Shown here one piece after another: positions 13,657-27,445 of a stretch of 27,445 bases of DNA. Origin of the DNA: Thermoplasmata archaeon (lineage in GTDB: Archaea > Thermoplasmatota > E2 > DHVEG-1 > B18-G2); NCBI GenBank assembly GCA_021163455.1, contig JAGGWT010000027.1, forward strand, positions 1 to 27,445, given 5' to 3'. Below the pieces are notes generated by a model that searched no databases, was not told the origin of the DNA, and worked only from the letters and a program-made list of their open reading frames with translations. Positions within the stretch are counted from its first letter, which is position 1. Each line of letters opens with the position of its first letter. A program made the translations under genes and the position numbers.

Positions 13657-15765
13657 TCACTCTATAACAACTCTGCTTACCCCTTCCTCATCTTCATATA
13701 CTGTGATAGCGTTTGTTACCATCTGTTTAATCTCATCTATATGTGTTATTATAAAAATCTGCTTGAATCTGTTGGATAGGGCATTCAGTGCATTCAGTAT
13801 GTTCCTGCGCCTGTTTATATCTTGGGAGCCAAAAATTTCATCGAGAATGATAAAGTTGAACTCTCCGCCCGCTCTATCTGCAAGCATCTGGGATATTGCA
13901 AGTCTTATGCAGAGGTTTGCAAGATCCTCTTCTCCTCCCGAAAATCTGCCTATCTCATAGGGTGTACCACCATCATATATCAGTATGTCATAGTTTTCGT
14001 TCAGTTCGAGTTCACTGTACTTTCCATCTGTAAGACCTTCCAGCAAACTGGATGCATACGCAGATAGAGTCGGTCTGATTCTCGATATCATGTCTATCCT
14101 GAACTCTCCCATCAGTTTTTCAAGAGTATTCAGCATGGAGAGTTTATCTTCCTCTTCCGATATTCTTCTTTTTATCTCTCTTATCTCTTCAACTCTCGCT
14201 CTCAATTCCTCTATTTTTTGTTTCAAAAGATTGAGTTCACCAAATATCTCTTTTATTTCTTCCTTTACTCCATCAACCTCTATCTGTTTTTTCCTTACTC
14301 TTTCGACGGCAAGTTTGTATCTCTCGTAATATTCCTTGACTTCTTTTTCCAGATTCCTGTAAACAGTTTCATCAAATTTTATCTCACCAAGCAGAGCAAT
14401 TTCCTTTTCTTTGATTTCAATCTCCTTTTCTTCCTTCTCTATCTCTCTGATCATGGAGTGGATCATGCCTTCTATCCTTCTCAGGGCCATTTTCTTTTTC
14501 AGGATGTACTCTCTTCTTCTGGACAGAGCCTCTTCCAGTTTTCTTTCCCTGCTCAGATCCTGTTCCAGATTCCTCAACCTCACTTCAATCTCAGATAGCA
14601 TATCAACCTTTTCCTTTATCTCCCTGTCAAACTTTTCTATCAGCCTCGAGTAATGCTCTCCCAAAACTCTCTCGCAAGTCGGGCATGTTGCTGACGGACC
14701 GAGAGATTCTATCTTTTTCTTGCGATCCTCTATTTTTCTTTTCTCTCTTTCTACAGCGTTCATATTTGTTCTTTCCTTTTCCATCTCGGTGAGAACATCT
14801 GATATCTTCATTCTCAACTTCTCGAGTTTTTTCTCAACATCCACAAATTCTTCTTCTACCTCTCCCATCTTGCTCTTTTCTCTCTCCTTTTCGAGAAGAT
14901 TCTGCCTCCTTTCCTTAAGAGACATCTTCAGCCTGAGAATTTCTCTCTCCAGATTTGCCTTTCTATCGAACAGTTCCTTTTTCTTCCTTTCCTCATCCAG
15001 CTTGCGCTGCAGAGATTCATATTCTTTTTCGATTCTATCTTTTTCCTTCTCCAGCATCTCCAGCTCCTTTGAGAGAACACCAAGATGATTTTTCTTTTCG
15101 GATATCCTCCTTTTTACCCTCTCCATCTCCTCAGAATTTTTCTTTATCTCTCTGAGGAAAACCTCCTCCTTATCCTCACCCGTTCTTTCATCCTTTAGAG
15201 AAATTCTCATATGTTGCAGAATATCTTGCGTCCTCCTTATATCAGCCCTTATGTTCTTTATCGCCTTGTCAATGGCATCTATTCCAAGCATTCTCATTAT
15301 GAGTTGTTTTCTTTCGCTTGCACTCATTGTAGAGAGCGCGTTGAGTTCCTTCTGTTTCGCAAAGACAGATGTAAAGAAAGTCTTTGCATCCATACCAAAG
15401 AGATTTTGGATGAATTTCGTCGTCGCCTCCGCCCCGCTAGCCACTGGACGGTTGTTGATGTAAGCGTAAGCGGATGGAGACAGATTTTTTCCGATCATCT
15501 CCCTGATGACCTTTATGTTATTTTGATTGAATACAAAATCAACTTCCACTCTGCACCTCTCTGTGGGGAGAGCTTTATCTCTTTTGATTTTATCAGATGA
15601 TGTCCTTGCTGCAACATGTCCATACAAAGCCCATGCAAAAGCCTCAAATATGGTCGATTTTCCAACACCATTCAATCCGAATATTCCGACAACTCCCTCT
15701 GGGAATTTTATTTCAACGTTCTTGAATTTCCTGAAATTCTGCATCTTTATCGATTTGAGAATCAT
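13657..15765 (-). CDS. rad50: Rad50/SbcC-type SMC-family ATPase
   Basis: Walker A GLNGVGKST, zinc hook CPTC, signature FSGGE, Walker B IILDE, H-loop ITH; ATGA overlap with mre11. Confidence 0.92.
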   Translation of the reverse strand: MILKSIKMQNFRKFKNVEIKFPEGVVGIFGLNGVGKSTIFEAFAWALYGHVAARTSSDKIKRDKALPTERCRVEVDFVFNQNNIKVIREMIGKNLSPSAYAYINNRPVASGAEATTKFIQNLFGMDAKTFFTSVFAKQKELNALSTMSASERKQLIMRMLGIDAIDKAIKNIRADIRRTQDILQHMRISLKDERTGEDKEEVFLREIKKNSEEMERVKRRISEKKNHLGVLSKELEMLEKEKDRIEKEYESLQRKLDEERKKKELFDRKANLEREILRLKMSLKERRQNLLEKEREKSKMGEVEEEFVDVEKKLEKLRMKISDVLTEMEKERTNMNAVEREKRKIEDRKKKIESLGPSATCPTCERVLGEHYSRLIEKFDREIKEKVDMLSEIEVRLRNLEQDLSRERKLEEALSRRREYILKKKMALRRIEGMIHSMIREIEKEEKEIEIKEKEIALLGEIKFDETVYRNLEKEVKEYYERYKLAVERVRKKQIEVDGVKEEIKEIFGELNLLKQKIEELRARVEEIREIKRRISEEEDKLSMLNTLEKLMGEFRIDMISRIRPTLSAYASSLLEGLTDGKYSELELNENYDILIYDGGTPYEIGRFSGGEEDLANLCIRLAISQMLADRAGGEFNFIILDEIFGSQDINRRRNILNALNALSNRFKQIFIITHIDEIKQMVTNAITVYEDEEGVSRVVIE

Positions 15766-16907
15766 GTATCCTCTCCCTCAGCCTCCTGCAGGTATTTCTT
15801 TCCAAGAGCGAGAAATTCCTTTTTATCTTTTAAATTCCTCTTGTCTATAAATTTTTCAAATTCCGTCAGGATATCGGATATCACAACTTCCGATGAAATC
15901 ACCTGATCAACTGTTTTACCTGCGGAGTGTCTGACTTCAAAGTGCATTGCTTTTGAGAACATGGAAGATATAGAGGACATATCTAGGGATTTGTAAACCG
16001 AGGGGTCAATATTGATAAGAAGCAATCTTACTATGCAGCCAGTAAAATCTCTGCCGGCAATCGAATCTTTTATAGTGTTCAAAATCTCTCTAGGTTTCAA
16101 ATCTTTACAGTCAATGGGACCAATCTCCAGCATTTTTCTTGTGGGTATCTGAACAAACTCTGTTGTTACAGATTTGGAGAGCTCTACAATCACGAAACCC
16201 TTCTCCTCGTTTATCTCATTGAAACTCATCTTCTCTGTAGAGCCAGAGTAAACGATGTTATTTCTTATTCTGGTAAATCCATGGTAATGACCCAGAGCCA
16301 CATAGTCAAAGCCCTTTGTTATCGTGGACAAGGGAATGATATACTCGTTTATCTCTCCCATCTTGAATACCTCTACACTCTGTACTGCTCCGTGGGTCAC
16401 CAGGATGTTGAAATCCGCCGAAGGGTCAGGTAAAGCAGATTCCAGTGACTCCATAAATTCATCCCTATCTCTGCAGTGAGGTACGGTGTGGATGGCGATA
16501 CTCTTGCCCTTAATTTCCAGATTTATTCTCTCAGCTTTGTTGTATATGGGGTATACATTTTCCAGATGTTCAAACAGTTTGAAGATATGCCCTGTACCTT
16601 TGAGCTTGGGTGTCTCGTGATTTCCCGCTATTATTATTGTCGGAATCCCCATCTTTGATAATCTGAGAATCTGCTCCAGAGCAACGCTAATTGCTCGATT
16701 TGTCGGTCTCACGTTATCAAAGAGGTCTCCAGCATGGATTACAATATCTGGCCTGATGTCAACTATACGATTCACGGTTTCAACAAACGCTTTGTAAATA
16801 TCTTTTTCTCTCAAATTAATGCCATCACTATCTATCTTCCTGTAGGCAGAATACCCCAGGTGAGTATCAGCAAAATGCACAATTCTGATCTCACTTTCTT
16901 CTTTCAT
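15762..16907 (-). CDS. mre11: Mre11/SbcD metallophosphoesterase nuclease
   Basis: HFADTHLG, AGDLFD, AGNHE, THG and LGHYH motifs. Confidence 0.92.
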   Translation of the reverse strand: MKEESEIRIVHFADTHLGYSAYRKIDSDGINLREKDIYKAFVETVNRIVDIRPDIVIHAGDLFDNVRPTNRAISVALEQILRLSKMGIPTIIIAGNHETPKLKGTGHIFKLFEHLENVYPIYNKAERINLEIKGKSIAIHTVPHCRDRDEFMESLESALPDPSADFNILVTHGAVQSVEVFKMGEINEYIIPLSTITKGFDYVALGHYHGFTRIRNNIVYSGSTEKMSFNEINEEKGFVIVELSKSVTTEFVQIPTRKMLEIGPIDCKDLKPREILNTIKDSIAGRDFTGCIVRLLLINIDPSVYKSLDMSSISSMFSKAMHFEVRHSAGKTVDQVISSEVVISDILTEFEKFIDKRNLKDKKEFLALGKKYLQEAEGEDT

Positions 16908-19844: not shown

Positions 19845-21128
19845 TTAATGATAAGGCTCTTTTGCTGGATGAAGATCGACGTTTATCCATGGAAGCTCTA
19901 TTGCATAGAACGGAGTTACAGGGATGCGCATCTTTCCGGAGATAATCTTTGGACCCGAAGAGTGACCACTCCAGTAATTTCCAATCCATCGGTTGAATGA
20001 GAGAACCGGTGTGCAGAAACTTGCATCCACGCCATTGTCGATAAAGTTATTCTTCTGTATCACATTACCCCTGCATTTTGTTGCAAGGAATGAGCCAAGA
20101 TACAGACCAAAATCGGTGTTAAGGGATATGTTATTTCTGTACACTGTGTTTTTCACTCCTTCCACCGATATTCCGATTTTGCTGTGAACAATGCTATTTT
20201 CTGATATGTTGTTACCCTGCGACCAACCCTTAACAATACATATCCCGCACCATCCTCCACACTCTTCTATGTCATTCTGTGAAATTCTATTGAAGGAGCC
20301 ACCCTGCACACTTATGCCAAAAGAACCTCCCTGTGTGATTGTATTTTCAAAAACGATATTGTAATCAGAGTATGGAGCAAGAAGAATTCCTCCGGTGTTA
20401 TCATGCAGTGTATTTAGTGAGATGTTGTTATGGGATGCAGACCATAGAGAGATGGCAATATCTGATAACGTTATCTGGTTATTCGAGATGGTCACATTCT
20501 GACAACCATCCAGAGATATTCCGCATCCCTCAAACTCCGAGATGTTGCCCGCATATTTAGAAAAGACACCGCTGGTAATATTTGAGATTGTACAATCCGA
20601 GACCATCATATCATGGGACTGAGCAAGCACAATACCAGAAAATCCATCCAGAAAATCACATCCTGAAATAATGCTATTGTATGATGAAAATGCAAACAAA
20701 CCGCAGTCGTTGTTCTCGAAGTTACAGTCATGAATGTTCAGATTCTCCACCTCATATGTAACGATACCTGCATGTGGGTATGAGCCACCTGTTATGGTGA
20801 ATTGCGATATCTCAACATTATTTGCTGTAACATTTATCGCATATCCGAAGGCGGCGGCGATTATTGTGCTATCTCTGCTTTCTCCTATCAGTTTTATCTG
20901 CTTGCTTACCAGGACACTCTCATTATATACTCCGCTGTATACAAAAATAGTATCTCCATCTGCTGCATCATCTACAGCTTGCTGTATGCTGCTGTAATTT
21001 CCTTCACCACTTCCTCCGACATACAGCACTCTACCCTTGCCGTAAAGATATAATCCGTTTGTTGGAACAACAGCAACCACAATCAACATGAGGAAGACAG
21101 AAACAGGCAACATCATCTTTCCTCTCAT
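19845..21128 (-). CDS. Secreted right-handed parallel beta-helix (NosD/CASH) protein
   Basis: Signal peptide, VLYVGGSGEGNYSSIQQAVDDAADGDTIFVYSGVYNE, repeated I-S/T-x-N-x-I beta-helix turns, C-terminal GNYW...PWINVDLHPAKEPY. Confidence 0.85.
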   Translation of the reverse strand: MRGKMMLPVSVFLMLIVVAVVPTNGLYLYGKGRVLYVGGSGEGNYSSIQQAVDDAADGDTIFVYSGVYNESVLVSKQIKLIGESRDSTIIAAAFGYAINVTANNVEISQFTITGGSYPHAGIVTYEVENLNIHDCNFENNDCGLFAFSSYNSIISGCDFLDGFSGIVLAQSHDMMVSDCTISNITSGVFSKYAGNISEFEGCGISLDGCQNVTISNNQITLSDIAISLWSASHNNISLNTLHDNTGGILLAPYSDYNIVFENTITQGGSFGISVQGGSFNRISQNDIEECGGWCGICIVKGWSQGNNISENSIVHSKIGISVEGVKNTVYRNNISLNTDFGLYLGSFLATKCRGNVIQKNNFIDNGVDASFCTPVLSFNRWIGNYWSGHSSGPKIISGKMRIPVTPFYAIELPWINVDLHPAKEPYH

Positions 21129-21203
21129 ATTCTACCTCCATTGATGGCTGCGCCGCCTGCAGCAGCTACCTTTCCGGTGATTAATATTTCAACATTTATT
21201 TAT

Positions 21204-23273
21204 TTACTTTTTTCTTTTTATATTATTTATGAGAATAACCGCAAGAATGATGCACGCGAAAATCCAGGGTACATCCAGACCCGGTGTTTTCTTTTCCTCA
21301 CTGATGGTTACAGAGGTGGAATTCATGCTCACCTTTCCACCGTTATCTACAACAGTCAGAGTGACCATGTATGTACCAGCCCTCTTGTAAGTGTGGGTCA
21401 CAATCTTTCCCTCGGCTGTGCTGCCATCACCAAAATCCCAGATATAGCTTATTATTTCTCCATCCGGGTCATAGCTGGAGGAACCATCAAACGTGATTTC
21501 TTCATTTGCCTTCCCTTTGTATGGTCCACCGGGATCAGAGATGGGCGCCACATTGACCTCTTCTTCCATTACTATGGCATACGTCTTTGCAATGTTGCTG
21601 GTGCCGTTGTTGTCTATGACTGTTAAAGTTACCGTATAATTACCTGCTTTTGTGTATGTATGCGTCGGGTTTTCCGCGAGAATTTCTCCACTTCCGTCAC
21701 CAAAATCCCATCTGTAGAATTTTATCTCTCCATCCGGGTCGTATGATTTTGAACCATCAAACTGTATGGGCATACCAACAAATCCCTGATAAGGTCCACC
21801 CGGGTCTGAGACCGGCTTATCATTTGTCGGAGGTATGGGTACAGTATTGAATACCCATATATCAGATACATTTTCCAGCTTCGAATCGTTGACCACAACA
21901 TACCACGCCATCACCGTATCATACGGGAGATGAAGAGTGCAAGATGCTATCCCACCATTCGGTATATCGTGCCTCTCTGCAAGGAGGTAATTATCGCTTG
22001 CTCTGTAGAAATAGACAGATAGTTTATCACTATCCGGATCAGTAACCTTTACCTGAAGAACAGGGGATAGACCAACATTGGATTCCCCATCCTTGGGTGA
22101 GATAACTTCCGGCTTGTTTGGAGGTTTGAGGAAATTTCCGGTTGGGTATCTATCTGTACCGCCGCCCTGTATGTTGTAAGGATAATCTCCTATGCCATCA
22201 TGATTTCTGTCCACATCGTTATAATCGTCCCAGTAGTTGCCCACCTCTCCATTGTCCCACATATTCTTCCCATTACCCTTTGCATGGTTGCTGTTTTTGA
22301 GAAACCTGTTTTTGTAAATCATGTTGTTTTCACAATCTGTGGAGCTCGCATCTATTGCATACAGCATGGAGTTTGTAAACAGATTATCAAGAATGGTATT
22401 GTTGTTTCCGTGCAGAACCAGAGCGATATCATTACCATCGAATGTGTTATTCCTTACGGTGCAGTCTATTCCGTTGAGATTCAATCCGGTGGGATTCTGG
22501 GAAAAGGTATTCCTGTAAATCGTGCTGTTGTCAACATTGTAAAGATTTATACCAGCAACATTGTTGTGTTTCATGGTATTGTTGGTTATGTTGAAACCGG
22601 TGCAGCTCTGAACGTAAATACCATACTGATTGTAAAGGAGAGTGTTTCCATAAACGATGCCATTCTGCGAGTTAAAGAACTTTATTCCCGCAACGGTACA
22701 GTTTGTTATGTTATTATTCGTGAAGGCATCATTTACGGATGATGTTACATAGATTCCCTTACCTCCTCTTATAACATTCTCACCTATGGTATCCCCATCA
22801 GAGGAATCTAGGTATATGGCCCAGATGTCACCTGTTACATTTATGAAATTTCCCTGAATGATAATATTATCAGATTTAACATAAACTGCGGCAACATAGC
22901 AGCCCTTTGCTGCTTTTATTGTAAAATCTTCGATTGTAACAAAATCCGCTATCACTTCTATTGTGTATCTGTGACTGTCGTTCTTCCATATAGTTGTGTT
23001 TTCTTTACTCAGACCCTGGAGAGTGATCTCCTTATCAATAAGAAGGGTTTCATTATAAATGCCCGGGAAGACGTATATCGAATCTCCATCCTCTGCATTG
23101 TCTATTGCCTGCTGTATGGATGTGTAAGGGTGTTCCACGCTACCGTCTCCATCGCTGTACGGGTAAGATACATCAACATAAATATCTCTTGCATGGCCTG
23201 ACATCGCTATGAAAAGAACAAATAAACCGATTGCAAGACCAGATACCAAATATACCGCTCTTCTCACCACCAT
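21204..23273 (-). CDS. Surface protein: NosD/CASH beta-helix, Ig-like linker, two PKD domains, PGF-CTERM-like anchor
   Basis: GDGSVEHPYTSIQQAID, GNYWDDY, two P.SDPGGPY..FDGS.SYDPDGEI..Y.WDFGDG PKD repeats, and C-terminal TPGLD-hydrophobic-KRKK. Confidence 0.87.
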   Translation of the reverse strand: MVVRRAVYLVSGLAIGLFVLFIAMSGHARDIYVDVSYPYSDGDGSVEHPYTSIQQAIDNAEDGDSIYVFPGIYNETLLIDKEITLQGLSKENTTIWKNDSHRYTIEVIADFVTIEDFTIKAAKGCYVAAVYVKSDNIIIQGNFINVTGDIWAIYLDSSDGDTIGENVIRGGKGIYVTSSVNDAFTNNNITNCTVAGIKFFNSQNGIVYGNTLLYNQYGIYVQSCTGFNITNNTMKHNNVAGINLYNVDNSTIYRNTFSQNPTGLNLNGIDCTVRNNTFDGNDIALVLHGNNNTILDNLFTNSMLYAIDASSTDCENNMIYKNRFLKNSNHAKGNGKNMWDNGEVGNYWDDYNDVDRNHDGIGDYPYNIQGGGTDRYPTGNFLKPPNKPEVISPKDGESNVGLSPVLQVKVTDPDSDKLSVYFYRASDNYLLAERHDIPNGGIASCTLHLPYDTVMAWYVVVNDSKLENVSDIWVFNTVPIPPTNDKPVSDPGGPYQGFVGMPIQFDGSKSYDPDGEIKFYRWDFGDGSGEILAENPTHTYTKAGNYTVTLTVIDNNGTSNIAKTYAIVMEEEVNVAPISDPGGPYKGKANEEITFDGSSSYDPDGEIISYIWDFGDGSTAEGKIVTHTYKRAGTYMVTLTVVDNGGKVSMNSTSVTISEEKKTPGLDVPWIFACIILAVILINNIKRKK

Positions 23274-24153: not shown

Positions 24154-25155
24154 TCAGAGACTCCAGTACTTCTTCAGTATCTTTTTAAGCTCGTCTATCC
24201 TGTCCCTTGCATAAATCAATTCCTCCACTTTTTCTCTGTAATTGAACTCTTCACCATGCATTGCATATATCTCAGAGAGTACAAGTACACCGAGTTTGCT
24301 GAGATTGTATCCCCCCTCCAATGAGCATACAATTTTGGGCTGAACAGATCTGAGCTTTTCTATAATTCTGTAAAAACTCTCTGCCGATAACCTGAGACCT
24401 CCAAGCGCATCCTGATAGTGAGAATCGAAACCGGAGGATACTATGATTAAGTCCGGCTTGAACTGCTCAGCCACAGGTAGAAAAATTTCATCCATAGCAT
24501 CCATGATGGTCTTATCTCCGGCACCCCTTGGTAAAGGCAGATTTATGGTGTACCCTTCTCCCCCATCTCTACCGACCTCATCGATGTCTCCGGTTCCGGG
24601 GTAATGTGGGGATAGATGAAACGATTGATACATCACTCTATCACTCTCATAGAAAATGTCCTGGGTTCCATTTCCGTGATGGACATCATGGTCAAAAATC
24701 AACACCTTCTTGTTTTCCTTTGATATGATGTGGGCTGCCAGGGCAACGTTGTTAATCAGGCAGAATCCCATCGACCTGTTTCTGGTTGCATGGTGTCCCG
24801 GAGGTCTAACCAGAGCAAAACCAGCATCGAATTCTCCAGATAACACCTCGGATGCCAGCATAACGACCCCGCCGGCTGCAAGCCTTGCTATCTCATAGGA
24901 GCCGGGACACACGTATGTATCCATATCCACCCATCCACCGGTTTCGCTTAATCTTTTTACATTCTCTACCATCTCTTTTGAGTGGATCTCCAGAATCTTC
25001 TCTTCATCCGCTGGCTCGGGAGAAACTATCTTTATCTTCTCGAAAATCTCGGACTTTTTCAGGTCACGCATTATGGATATTAACCTCTCGGAGTTTTCTG
25101 GATGGTTGAAGTTATCATGCTCCAGGAATTTATCCGAATAAACCACCGAAATCAT
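24154..25155 (-). CDS. Zn-dependent histone deacetylase/AcuC family hydrolase
   Basis: HPE, RPPGHHA, GFC, DHDVHHGNGTQ, GFDSH..D and LEGGY. Confidence 0.93.
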   Translation of the reverse strand: MISVVYSDKFLEHDNFNHPENSERLISIMRDLKKSEIFEKIKIVSPEPADEEKILEIHSKEMVENVKRLSETGGWVDMDTYVCPGSYEIARLAAGGVVMLASEVLSGEFDAGFALVRPPGHHATRNRSMGFCLINNVALAAHIISKENKKVLIFDHDVHHGNGTQDIFYESDRVMYQSFHLSPHYPGTGDIDEVGRDGGEGYTINLPLPRGAGDKTIMDAMDEIFLPVAEQFKPDLIIVSSGFDSHYQDALGGLRLSAESFYRIIEKLRSVQPKIVCSLEGGYNLSKLGVLVLSEIYAMHGEEFNYREKVEELIYARDRIDELKKILKKYWSL

Positions 25156-25210: not shown

Positions 25211-27445
25211 ATGGGGGATACTCTGTTAGGAATATCATCCGAGTATCTGTATATTCACGGTAAAAAACCAAAGTTAGTGGAAGATATACATTCCCCCCAC
25301 TTTCTTGTATTCTCCAGAAACGAGACCATAGAAGCGGACAGAAAAAGATTGATAGATGCTTGGAAAAAATCTCAGGATACTCCTCTGAGACACATAAAGG
25401 ATGTTGGTGAGATAGAAAGATTCAGAAGTTTCTGGGATTTTGGTAAGGAGATAAAAGCATTCAGGGTTTTTGTGGACAGATCATTTCTGGTTCCAGAGGT
25501 CAGCGATTACATCTTTTTCAATCTGAATCTCTACACCGCGGAGCACGATATTCCATATCATCAGAGGGTACTCATAGACCTGGCTGTTGAGGATAAAGCA
25601 TGGATTCTCGACACCGAAGGGATAAAGAAAAAACTGAGGGTCCTCGTTTACGACATAGAAACAACAGAGTTTGAAGAGGGAAGAACTGATCTGCCGATAG
25701 ATATCCTTGGATTTTCATCCTTTGACGTATCCATAGAATCCGAGAAGAATCTCGACAGGGAAGAGTTCAATTTTGAAATCAAGGACATACCTTCGAGCTG
25801 GAGAGATTGCGAGGTCATACAGTTTGTATCGAGAAACGAAGATGAGGAAATAGATAATCTCCTGAACTTCTGCAACATGGTGAGACAGCATGATATCATA
25901 TCAGGTCACAACATTGTCGGTTTTGATAACAGACAGATACATGGCAGGGTAGAGAAAATTCTCAGAGAAAGAACAGACAGCCTGTCCAAAGAACAGATAG
26001 AGCTATTCAAAGAATTTCTGAATCAGTATTCAAGAAAAGACAGGTCCTTCCACTTCGGTGTGGGCTCAGAGATAATAAATCTCTACCCATCAACCTTTGA
26101 TACCTATCTGGGAGTGAGGAAATTCTATCCATATCTCGATGATTTTGGATTAAAATCGGTAGCTCCCTTTCTGGGTGTGAAGATAGAGGGCAGAGTTTAT
26201 CTCATGCCCAGCCAGATAAGAATAGATGATAGAACCCTCAAATACAACAAACAGGATGTTCAGGAGCAGGCAGGCGTTACCATAAGTCTTCTGGAGCAGG
26301 CATTACCGCTTGCCTTCACAACATGCATGCCCTTTGACATGCTCCTTGAGAGCGGAGCCGTTAACATGTGGGACCACATGGCAATGATAAGAGCCACAAA
26401 GATAAAGAAAATAATACCACCTCTCGCTAAAGCTTTACCTGTCGCCCAGAGTCTTTTGAAACTCTTTCCCAATGCTAAGAAGAAGGAAGATATATCAAAG
26501 GCGAGCAGAGAGAAGAGAAATCAGATATCAAAAGACCTTATCAGGATTGTAAAGTATGGCATCGAAATGCCTGACTGGGTTGAGTATCCTGAAGTTATAT
26601 TCAACAAATCAGCCAAGGACAGAGAGGACATACTCAACTATCACATACCCGGAGGAATGACGATAAAGCCGGACAAGGATGCAAATTCTCATTTCATACC
26701 GTGGTACTATGTTATCGTCGCAGATGTTGGAGCTATGTATCCTACCATACTTAAGGCGCTGAACTTTGGTGCCGATGTTGTGAGGCTGGCGAGAAAGGAT
26801 GAGATACCGGATTACTGGGTCTGGCTGAAGAAATTACCGAAGAGCTTTCTTGAGAGCAGGAAGATAATGTGGAAGGAAGTGGATTCCTCAGAATCATTTG
26901 CAGACTCAGGATACATGGTTGGCATAAGGATAGACAGCAACCCCGGTGTTGTGAACAGAGCAATGACGGGTATAATGAACGTGATAGCAAAGATAAAAGA
27001 GAATCTGAAGAAAGAGGAGGACCCTGAGAAGAAGAGAAGACTCAAGATGATATATCAGAGCCTCAAAGGCGCAAGAAACGCAGGAACTCATGGCATACTT
27101 TCAGCCCCAACAGTTTCTGGCAGACAGTTCAACATATGGGGCGCCGCCGCGATAACCACGAAGGGACAGGAAATACTTTTTGACACGCTGAAAAGATTGA
27201 AAGAGAAGGGAATAAGGATTGTTTACGGAGATACCGATGGTATATATATCGCCTGCTCCAGATCTATAGATAGTGTCCCGGAACTTGCAAAGGCACTCAA
27301 TGTGGAGGTGAAAAAAGAAGAAGATCACTGGATAACATCACCAGAGATTGCCTACGATGCCATAAGAGAGTGTTCTGATATATGGAAGAAGAGATTAAGA
27401 TATAAGGGCTTTGAACTCGAACCCGAAAAGCATGATGCCATGATA
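25211..27445 (+). CDS. polB: Divergent family B DNA polymerase, 3'-truncated by the window end
   Basis: Translated by hand as open from ATG 25211 to the end (745 codons). Exo I YDIETT (25649), Exo II GHNIVGFD, Exo III YNKQD, motif A DVGAMYPT (26723), motif B KGARNAGTHG (27065), motif C YGDTDG (27224). Confidence 0.92.
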   Translation, partial: MGDTLLGISSEYLYIHGKKPKLVEDIHSPHFLVFSRNETIEADRKRLIDAWKKSQDTPLRHIKDVGEIERFRSFWDFGKEIKAFRVFVDRSFLVPEVSDYIFFNLNLYTAEHDIPYHQRVLIDLAVEDKAWILDTEGIKKKLRVLVYDIETTEFEEGRTDLPIDILGFSSFDVSIESEKNLDREEFNFEIKDIPSSWRDCEVIQFVSRNEDEEIDNLLNFCNMVRQHDIISGHNIVGFDNRQIHGRVEKILRERTDSLSKEQIELFKEFLNQYSRKDRSFHFGVGSEIINLYPSTFDTYLGVRKFYPYLDDFGLKSVAPFLGVKIEGRVYLMPSQIRIDDRTLKYNKQDVQEQAGVTISLLEQALPLAFTTCMPFDMLLESGAVNMWDHMAMIRATKIKKIIPPLAKALPVAQSLLKLFPNAKKKEDISKASREKRNQISKDLIRIVKYGIEMPDWVEYPEVIFNKSAKDREDILNYHIPGGMTIKPDKDANSHFIPWYYVIVADVGAMYPTILKALNFGADVVRLARKDEIPDYWVWLKKLPKSFLESRKIMWKEVDSSESFADSGYMVGIRIDSNPGVVNRAMTGIMNVIAKIKENLKKEEDPEKKRRLKMIYQSLKGARNAGTHGILSAPTVSGRQFNIWGAAAITTKGQEILFDTLKRLKEKGIRIVYGDTDGIYIACSRSIDSVPELAKALNVEVKKEEDHWITSPEIAYDAIRECSDIWKKRLRYKGFELEPEKHDAMI

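Follow-up and report, generated by a model that had tools for sequence, protein, structure and literature searches.

A class-wide family-B DNA polymerase of Thermoprofundales, most probably of group B8, with a remodelled nucleotide-binding pocket

To gain insight into an unusual archaeal polymerase gene, we analyzed a stretch of 27,445 nucleotides (the window), which is contig JAGGWT010000027.1 of the Thermoplasmata archaeon assembly GCA_021163455.1 (GTDB lineage E2; DHVEG-1; B18-G2). The last open reading frame (ORF) of the window encodes a family-B DNA polymerase (PolB) in which the catalytic residues are intact, the near-invariant tyrosine of motif B is missing, and a triphosphate-binding arginine of the fingers is replaced by isoleucine. 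Our analysis suggests that this protein is a general-purpose, lineage-specific PolB of the Thermoprofundales, most probably of group B8, which is active and proofreading and whose fingers were remodelled in two steps; we place the probability of this reading at about 0.7.

The PolB ORF comprises 745 codons and reaches the end of the window without a stop codon. The last third of the gene is found on another contig (C18) of the same metagenome bin (G000), and the ends of the two contigs share an overlap of 367 nucleotides within the gene (positions 27079-27445 of the window and G000:C18:5112-5478), with 90% nucleotide and 97% amino acid identity. In addition, a 949 amino acid protein from a public collection (P0002) is 99% identical to the window PolB. 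The gene is not biologically truncated and its full length is about 949 residues; because of the C18 overlap and the existence of P0002, the break looks like strain heterogeneity of the bin, which mixes at least two strains and whose assembly broke inside the PolB gene. As to its identity, the window PolB passes the Pfam cut-off of 23 bits for both DNA_pol_B_exo1 (PF03104; 34.6 bits) and DNA_pol_B (PF00136; 32.7 bits). The NCBIfam equivalogs for archaeal B3, archaeal B1 and bacterial Pol II gave 39.5 bits at best against a cut-off of 570, and a sequence search of the PDB gave nothing better than an E-value of 2e-8.

The features of the gene and of its surroundings are collected in Table 1. Conservation was counted over 163 aligned family proteins, reaching down to about 29% identity and with denominators that vary by column, and in a second set of 23 members that are 29-86% identical to P0002, the full-length reference.

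Table 1. Features of the PolB gene and of neighboring genes in the window, with their supporting evidence or the number of family proteins that keep the named residues.
Feature	Position	Strand	Evidence or conservation
Family-B DNA polymerase (PolB) gene, residues 1-745 of ~949	25211..27445	+	ORF, translation, Pfam PF03104 and PF00136
N-terminal stretch aligned with the Thermococcales PolB uracil-pocket region (HSPHFL, FLVPEVS, HDIPYH)	25289..25561	+	Profile alignment to Pfu PolB 3a2f
Exo I VYDIETT (D148, E150)	25646..25666	+	D 158/159, E 158/159
Exo II GHNIVGFDNR (N234, D239)	25904..25933	+	N 161/162, D 161/161
Exo III YNKQD (Y345, D349)	26243..26257	+	Y 160/160, D 160/160
Motif A DVGAMYPT (D505-T512; catalytic D505, steric-gate Y510)	26723..26746	+	D, Y and P511 each 159/159
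Finger helix N	26948..27013	+	Helix 580-601 in the AlphaFold2 model, Pfu alignment, fixed-offset comparison with ~55 other PolBs
End of finger helix P (from Y615) and motif B KGARNAGTHG (K619-G628)	27053..27094 (motif B 27065-27094)	+	Script, alignment, model
Motif C YGDTDG (Y672-G677; D674, D676)	27224..27241	+	D674 159/161, D676 154/160
Histone-deacetylase-family gene, divergent from PolB across a 55-bp AT-rich spacer	24154..25155	-	Pfam Hist_deacetyl, E 1.7e-90
Mre11-like metallophosphoesterase gene (381 aa), overlapping the Rad50-like gene	15762-16907	-	
Rad50-like gene (SMC_N / SbcC Walker B, 702 aa), ~8 kb from PolB	13657-15765	-	

A first-pass annotation of the sequence had described motifs A, B and C of this polymerase and acidic residues in all three exonuclease motifs. 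A script check found the three motifs as described and the residue numbers K619, N623 and H627 exact, and at least 158 of 159 family proteins retain the acidic residues of the exonuclease motifs. The window PolB carries D148, E150, D239, D349, D505, D674 and D676, each of which is at least 96% conserved, and Met509 of motif A, at the position of RB69 L415, is Met in 153/160 proteins. Since the family as a whole retains the residues for catalysis and proofreading, the window PolB is very probably an active polymerase, as had been proposed.

One departure lies in motif B. The canonical motif reads K-x3-N-S/A-x-Y-G, whereas the window sequence KGARNAGTHG keeps the Lys and the Asn, lacks the Tyr, and is one residue longer. 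This arrangement is maintained throughout the family to a degree well past anything chance would give: His627 is present in 162/163 proteins, K619 and R622 in 159/160 each, N623 in 160/160 and G628 in 161/162. Position 626 is Thr in 146 of the 163 proteins and Ser in 13, and position 625 is Gly in 154 of them, giving way to Leu or Met in the branch that has diverged furthest. In the set of 23 members, the invariant positions are K619, R622, N623, H627 and G628 of motif B together with D505, Y510, P511, D674, T675, D676 and G677. The exhaustive search that yielded the family also returned about 55 other PolBs, and nearly all of these have the canonical nine-residue form K...N[SA]x[YF]G. The motif-B change is a clade signature that is common to the whole lineage, and not private to the window copy. 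The orthologues lack NSxYG, and the changed pocket is under strong purifying selection, in line with the earlier view of a rewired nucleotide pocket.

The first-pass annotation had read motif B as holding one extra residue and a His in place of the Tyr. The absence of the Tyr is borne out by every alignment made, and the pairing of His with Tyr is the favoured, although not the sole, alignment. Both a phmmer comparison with the Pyrobaculum PolB (5mdn) and a BLAST comparison with the sister protein P0278 place H627 opposite the Tyr with one inserted residue, and in pairwise alignments with the sisters P0278 and P0194 the His faces Tyr or Phe. A different picture comes from the alignment of the family profile to the Pfu PolB, which pairs GTHG with GYYG and deletes the Phe-Tyr. 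In that case His627 would not be the equivalent of the Tyr at all: the helix would be regular or would have lost two residues, Thr626 or nothing would stand at the back wall, and His627 would have some other role, for example a structural one. This alternative has the merit that G625 and G628 would then correspond to the two conserved glycines of YGxxG, and that T626 would be the i+7 residue from the Lys in a regular helix. However, the divergent members read RNALTHG or RNAMTHG, and a Leu or Met at position 625 argues against the pairing of GTHG with GYYG because it fits N-A-x followed by an inserted residue and does not fit Gly625 as the invariant Gly. The AlphaFold2 model likewise ends the finger helix (605-624) at A624, breaks it at G625-T626 and resumes with a short helix (627-631), which is exactly where an insertion would cause a break. 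Finally, the His is more strictly kept (162/163) than the Thr (146/163), and the 5mdn, P0278 and P0194 alignments all set the His against an aromatic residue. We thus favour a replacement of the Tyr by Thr-His with the addition of one residue, in which H627 would fill the position of the Tyr, and regard a non-equivalent His as rather unlikely.

Many orthologues (P0122, P0143, P0138, P0165, P0166 and P0186, and proteins of genomes G084, G217, G286 and others) carry in-frame inteins with Intein_splicing and LAGLIDADG domains. One insertion site lies within motif B, at NAG|T(S)HG, and others lie around motif C, yielding ORFs of 1160-1857 amino acids. The window copy is free of inteins.

A second change affects finger helix N. 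In RB69 polymerase, R482, K486 and K560 bind the triphosphate, and R482 and K486 are described as completely conserved in class B (PMC2275142). The helix-N Lys is kept in the window PolB as K596 (positions 26996-26998; the RB69 K486 counterpart), which is Lys in 155/160 family proteins, whereas the canonical Arg (RB69 R482, Pfu R460) is replaced by I592 (positions 26984-26986), which is Ile in 141/160. The alignment at the finger helices is firm because the spacing from the conserved Asp-Pro turn to both helices is unchanged. The R1057A substitution in Pol zeta, equivalent to RB69 R482, cripples that enzyme (PMC2275142). Helix P of the family has an invariant Arg (R622) immediately before the motif-B Asn and an invariant Tyr (Y615) four residues ahead of the Lys. 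The gain of R622 and Y615 may represent a compensation for the loss of the helix-N Arg, or at least correlates with it; R622 could touch the triphosphate and so take over the phosphate contact.

Among the about 55 other PolBs, only the nearest outgroups, P0194 and P0195/P0278, combine an Arg ahead of the Asn of motif B with the lack of the Arg on helix N. These are the nearest non-family matches (E about 1e-9 to 1e-10), PolBs of about 760 amino acids of which one member is labelled Bathyarchaeota. They share with the family the K-G-x-R-N-A sequence, the Tyr at -4 from the motif-B Lys, the missing helix-N Arg, and the sequences DTDG and HKNY. They differ in their canonical motif-B spacing, in keeping Tyr or Phe (KGLRNAIYG, KGLRNAAFG), in being about 190 residues shorter and in residing on ORFan-rich contigs. 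This distribution suggests two steps, with an Arg relocation that is common to the outgroups followed by a Thr-His change in this family alone. In the first step, the helix-N gamma-phosphate Arg would have become Ile while R622 and Y615 arose on helix P, in common with the virus-like sisters. In the second, confined to this family, the back-wall Tyr that faces the nascent base pair would have been replaced by Thr-His, with one added residue and a local break of the helix. Both steps would have been fixed before the clade diversified.

The sister protein P0278 (762 amino acids, KGLRNAIYG) is encoded at L102:4907-7195 and L103:3095-5383, on contigs of 21-34 kb. Its neighbors nearly all lack a Pfam match and include a 1088 amino acid beta-helix protein, giving these contigs a virus- or mobile-element-like appearance.

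To place the family among known polymerases, we compared its predicted structure (AlphaFold2, pLDDT 89.6, pTM 0.82) with known folds. The best Foldseek matches are archaeal B3 and B1 PolBs (E 1e-29 for KOD; target TM 0.74-0.76), and VIA gave top Z scores of 24.1 (B3, 4flt), 20.8 (B1) and 20.4. By group, VIA ranks B3 (24.1) above B1 (20.8), Pol II (19.6) and Pol epsilon (18.6), and PDB profile matches favour B3 and Pol alpha. The Thermococcales B3 enzymes (Pfu, KOD, Tgo and P. abyssi; 4k8z, 4flt, 3a2f) are the best structural match, with the top Z score extending over 708 residues and a target TM of about 0.75. The window PolB resembles them in domain order, in its uracil-pocket-like N-terminal motifs, in Exo I-III, in a DTDG motif C and in a C-terminal PCNA-interacting protein (PIP)-type box. 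It differs from them in that identity is only 16-18% and the family is about 175 residues longer. The differences extend to the active site, where motif A reads DVGAMYPT against the B3 consensus DFxSLYPS (as quoted in the first-pass annotation), the helix-N Arg is replaced by Ile, an extra Arg precedes the motif-B Asn, and the Tyr gives way to Thr-His.

In the region aligned with the uracil read-ahead pocket, the family shows PYF, VP and DIPY, and residue 30 of the window PolB is a His (His30), in contrast to the Tyr of most relatives.

We also asked whether the structure is especially close to that of Pol epsilon. Pol epsilon has motif A DVASMYP, with Val and Met as in the window motif A, and has a canonical motif B and ELDTDG. 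Its catalytic half (4m8o) matches the fold over 752 residues with a Z score of 18.6, a value exceeded by B3, B1 and Pol II, and Pol epsilon is not among the 60 best PDB profile matches listed.

The family is also distinct from PolB2, the Dpo2-type polymerase known as the archaeal translesion synthesis (TLS) extender (PMC8764526). The two have the family-B fold in common, and PolB2-like genes co-occur with the family in some Thermoprofundales genomes. PolB2 is marked by a lack of Exo I and III and of the leading Asp in motif C, all of which the window PolB retains. The initial distinction from the inactivated PolB2 type holds in this respect, and some relatives have a separate PolB2-like gene, as described below.

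We next considered the distribution of the family. Relatives were confirmed in 195 stretches of a species-level collection that holds one genome per species. Nearly all of the best 80 of these 195 are labelled as Thermoplasmatota/Thermoplasmata metagenome-assembled genomes (MAGs), a few having broader labels. These best 80 include SG8-52-3, SM1-50, M11B2D and 3300003432D, which are genomes of Thermoprofundales (MBG-D; PMC6461988). [quoted passage not shown] In a sample of 400 genomes drawn evenly from the phylum, the family is present in 103 of the 105 genomes that belong to the window's class, in 2/2 genomes of one other family, and in none of about 290 other genomes of the phylum.

This pattern corresponds to a group that is already in the literature. 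Archaeal PolB group B8 was reported in all DHVEG-1 MAGs and is conspicuously absent from Thermoplasma acidophilum (Kazlauskas et al., 2020, Nucleic Acids Research; PMC7544198). Given the presence in 103/105 genomes of E2 and the near-absence elsewhere in the phylum, the window gene most probably belongs to B8, a group catalogued in 2020 of which the window copy is an ordinary member; the lineage of B8 matches that of the window family, with no known difference between the two. The text of that publication mentions neither the motif-B Thr-His nor the missing helix-N Arg: the word "tyrosine" does not occur in it, and "histidine" occurs only for the motif C of B2. Group B4, which has been assigned to Thermoplasmatota including T. 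acidophilum (PMC7544198), was considered for the window PolB and rejected. The family is confined to one class, and in four genomes of other classes or families, where the family was not detected, we found PolBs of 813-863 amino acids, which we infer to be B4, with DF[KR]SMYP[ST], a canonical motif B (K..MN[ST]FYG) and Y[SG]DTDS.

Polymerase genes were also counted. The window genome, which is 86% complete, has a single PolB together with both PolD subunits (DP1 and DP2) and PCNA, and five relatives from the window's family (87-98% complete) have one PolB ORF each, of 949-973 amino acids. No Y-family polymerase was found in these six genomes. Across the class, the PolB family of 920-1000 amino acids is near-universal, while a second PolB of about 745 amino acids is patchy. 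The latter was detected in G195:C25, G235:C25 and G292:C119 (loci L096-L098) as a PolB2-like gene with motif A DYASLYPH, whereas none was seen in the family to which the window genome belongs; regular expressions for Exo I, motif B and DTD matched nothing in these proteins. In the main family, full-length copies end in a PIP-like box, QKGLDAWM (P0002 residues 942-949, and the last residues of the G000:C18 PolB ORF on the minus strand), and variants such as QRDLSSWF and QNTLADFM are present in most of the family members listed. The tail that bears it (938-949) is disordered in the model. It is probable, on the basis of this motif, that the enzyme is tethered to PCNA through its C-terminus. The near-universal presence of the gene, its status as sole PolB in the six genomes, the retention of proofreading residues and the PIP-like box together give the protein the profile of the general PolB of the lineage beside PolD, rather than of an accessory translesion enzyme. 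In this role it would act beside PolD in replication and repair synthesis, with a fidelity that would be adequate for housekeeping.

This conclusion departs from the first-pass annotation, which had favoured a specialised polymerase for repair, translesion synthesis or an altered substrate. Under that proposal, PolD would carry out all bulk replication, and the PolB would serve in lesion bypass, repair patches or the use of unusual substrates such as ribonucleoside triphosphates (rNTPs) or modified bases. It draws on the pocket itself: the canonical back-wall Tyr is missing and, as the annotation had noted, mutation of this residue lowers fidelity in RB69, where Y567A raises error rates (PMC5009745), while the missing helix-N Arg, in view of the crippled Pol zeta R1057A (PMC2275142), makes the pocket unlike those of high-fidelity PolBs. 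It is also consistent with the presence of PolD, the main replicase in most Euryarchaeota (PMC7544198), and with the failure to find a Y-family polymerase, as lesion bypass would then need another enzyme. Nevertheless, conservation of the proofreading residues is strict, nearly every genome of the class has the gene, and the same pocket persists without change over the range of 29-100% identity, as would suit a core function. In those genomes that do have an accessory PolB, this is the separate PolB2-like gene, of the type known as the archaeal TLS extender (PMC8764526). Two further points speak against a specialised role, the PIP-like box of the family and the inteins found within its active-site motifs. 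Both are features of replicative archaeal PolBs as well. Taken together, we regard a dedicated specialised enzyme as unlikely, somewhat more so than the non-equivalence of His627.

Much less probable still, and to our mind barely credible, is that the gene is the polymerase of a resident virus or mobile element and not a host replication gene. Its nearest outgroup, P0278, does lie on ORFan-rich, virus-like contigs, and a viral origin has been proposed for B4 and B6, archaeal groups of narrow distribution (Kazlauskas et al., PMC7544198). However, 103/105 genomes of the class carry the gene, a deacetylase homologue adjoins it at 47 related loci, its neighbors are housekeeping genes, and the G+C content of the window varies little (about 0.40-0.45).

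Several points weigh against our reading of a general-purpose B8 polymerase with remodelled fingers. The window genome is only 86% complete, and a second polymerase might be unassembled. The activity, fidelity and PCNA binding of all members are deduced from their sequences. RB69 Y567A is a mutator (PMC5009745), so a change at the back wall could bring a change in fidelity, which only biochemistry can exclude. The equivalence of H627 to the Tyr depends on the alignment chosen, and the B8 label rests on distribution. In addition, B8 branches within the EpsilonN-like clade of the published tree (PMC7544198), a placement that was not reproduced by our best profile and structure matches, in which B3 and B1 come first and Pol epsilon fifth; this ranking neither supports nor contradicts such a deep placement.

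The chromosomal surroundings of the PolB gene include a ribosomal protein S3Ae gene and the Rad50-like and Mre11-like genes. A homologue of the divergent deacetylase gene is found at 47/80 related loci, lying upstream and on the opposite strand in the listed matches; it is a conserved neighbor and not a demonstrated functional partner. A 555 amino acid ORF that follows the PolB stop codon on C18 was considered as a conserved partner and rejected, as it recurs only in the four closest loci. Two large genes at 19845-23273 (minus strand) encode beta-helix/NosD-type proteins, of which the 689 amino acid product also has PKD domains; both are probably surface proteins.

The remodelling of the pocket is clade-wide and somewhat larger than the first-pass annotation had seen, as the helix-N Arg is lost as well. 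Within family B, both the Tyr of motif B and the Arg of helix N are taken to be invariant, and their mutation harms fidelity or activity in model enzymes. A globally abundant class of sediment archaea has nevertheless run on a PolB without both since the class arose, often as its sole PolB. It is a tentative and rather doubtful proposition that the two-step remodelling altered how the enzyme grips the triphosphate and checks the nascent base pair, and with this its fidelity or substrate range to a measurable extent, for instance in tolerating damaged or modified bases or rNTPs. If true, nature would here have found another way to build a pocket that is considered invariant among family-B enzymes, and the interest of the family for polymerase enzymology would be higher if the pocket is functionally different. 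The family offers a natural test case for the rebuilding of a nucleotide pocket, and possibly a scaffold for polymerase engineering.

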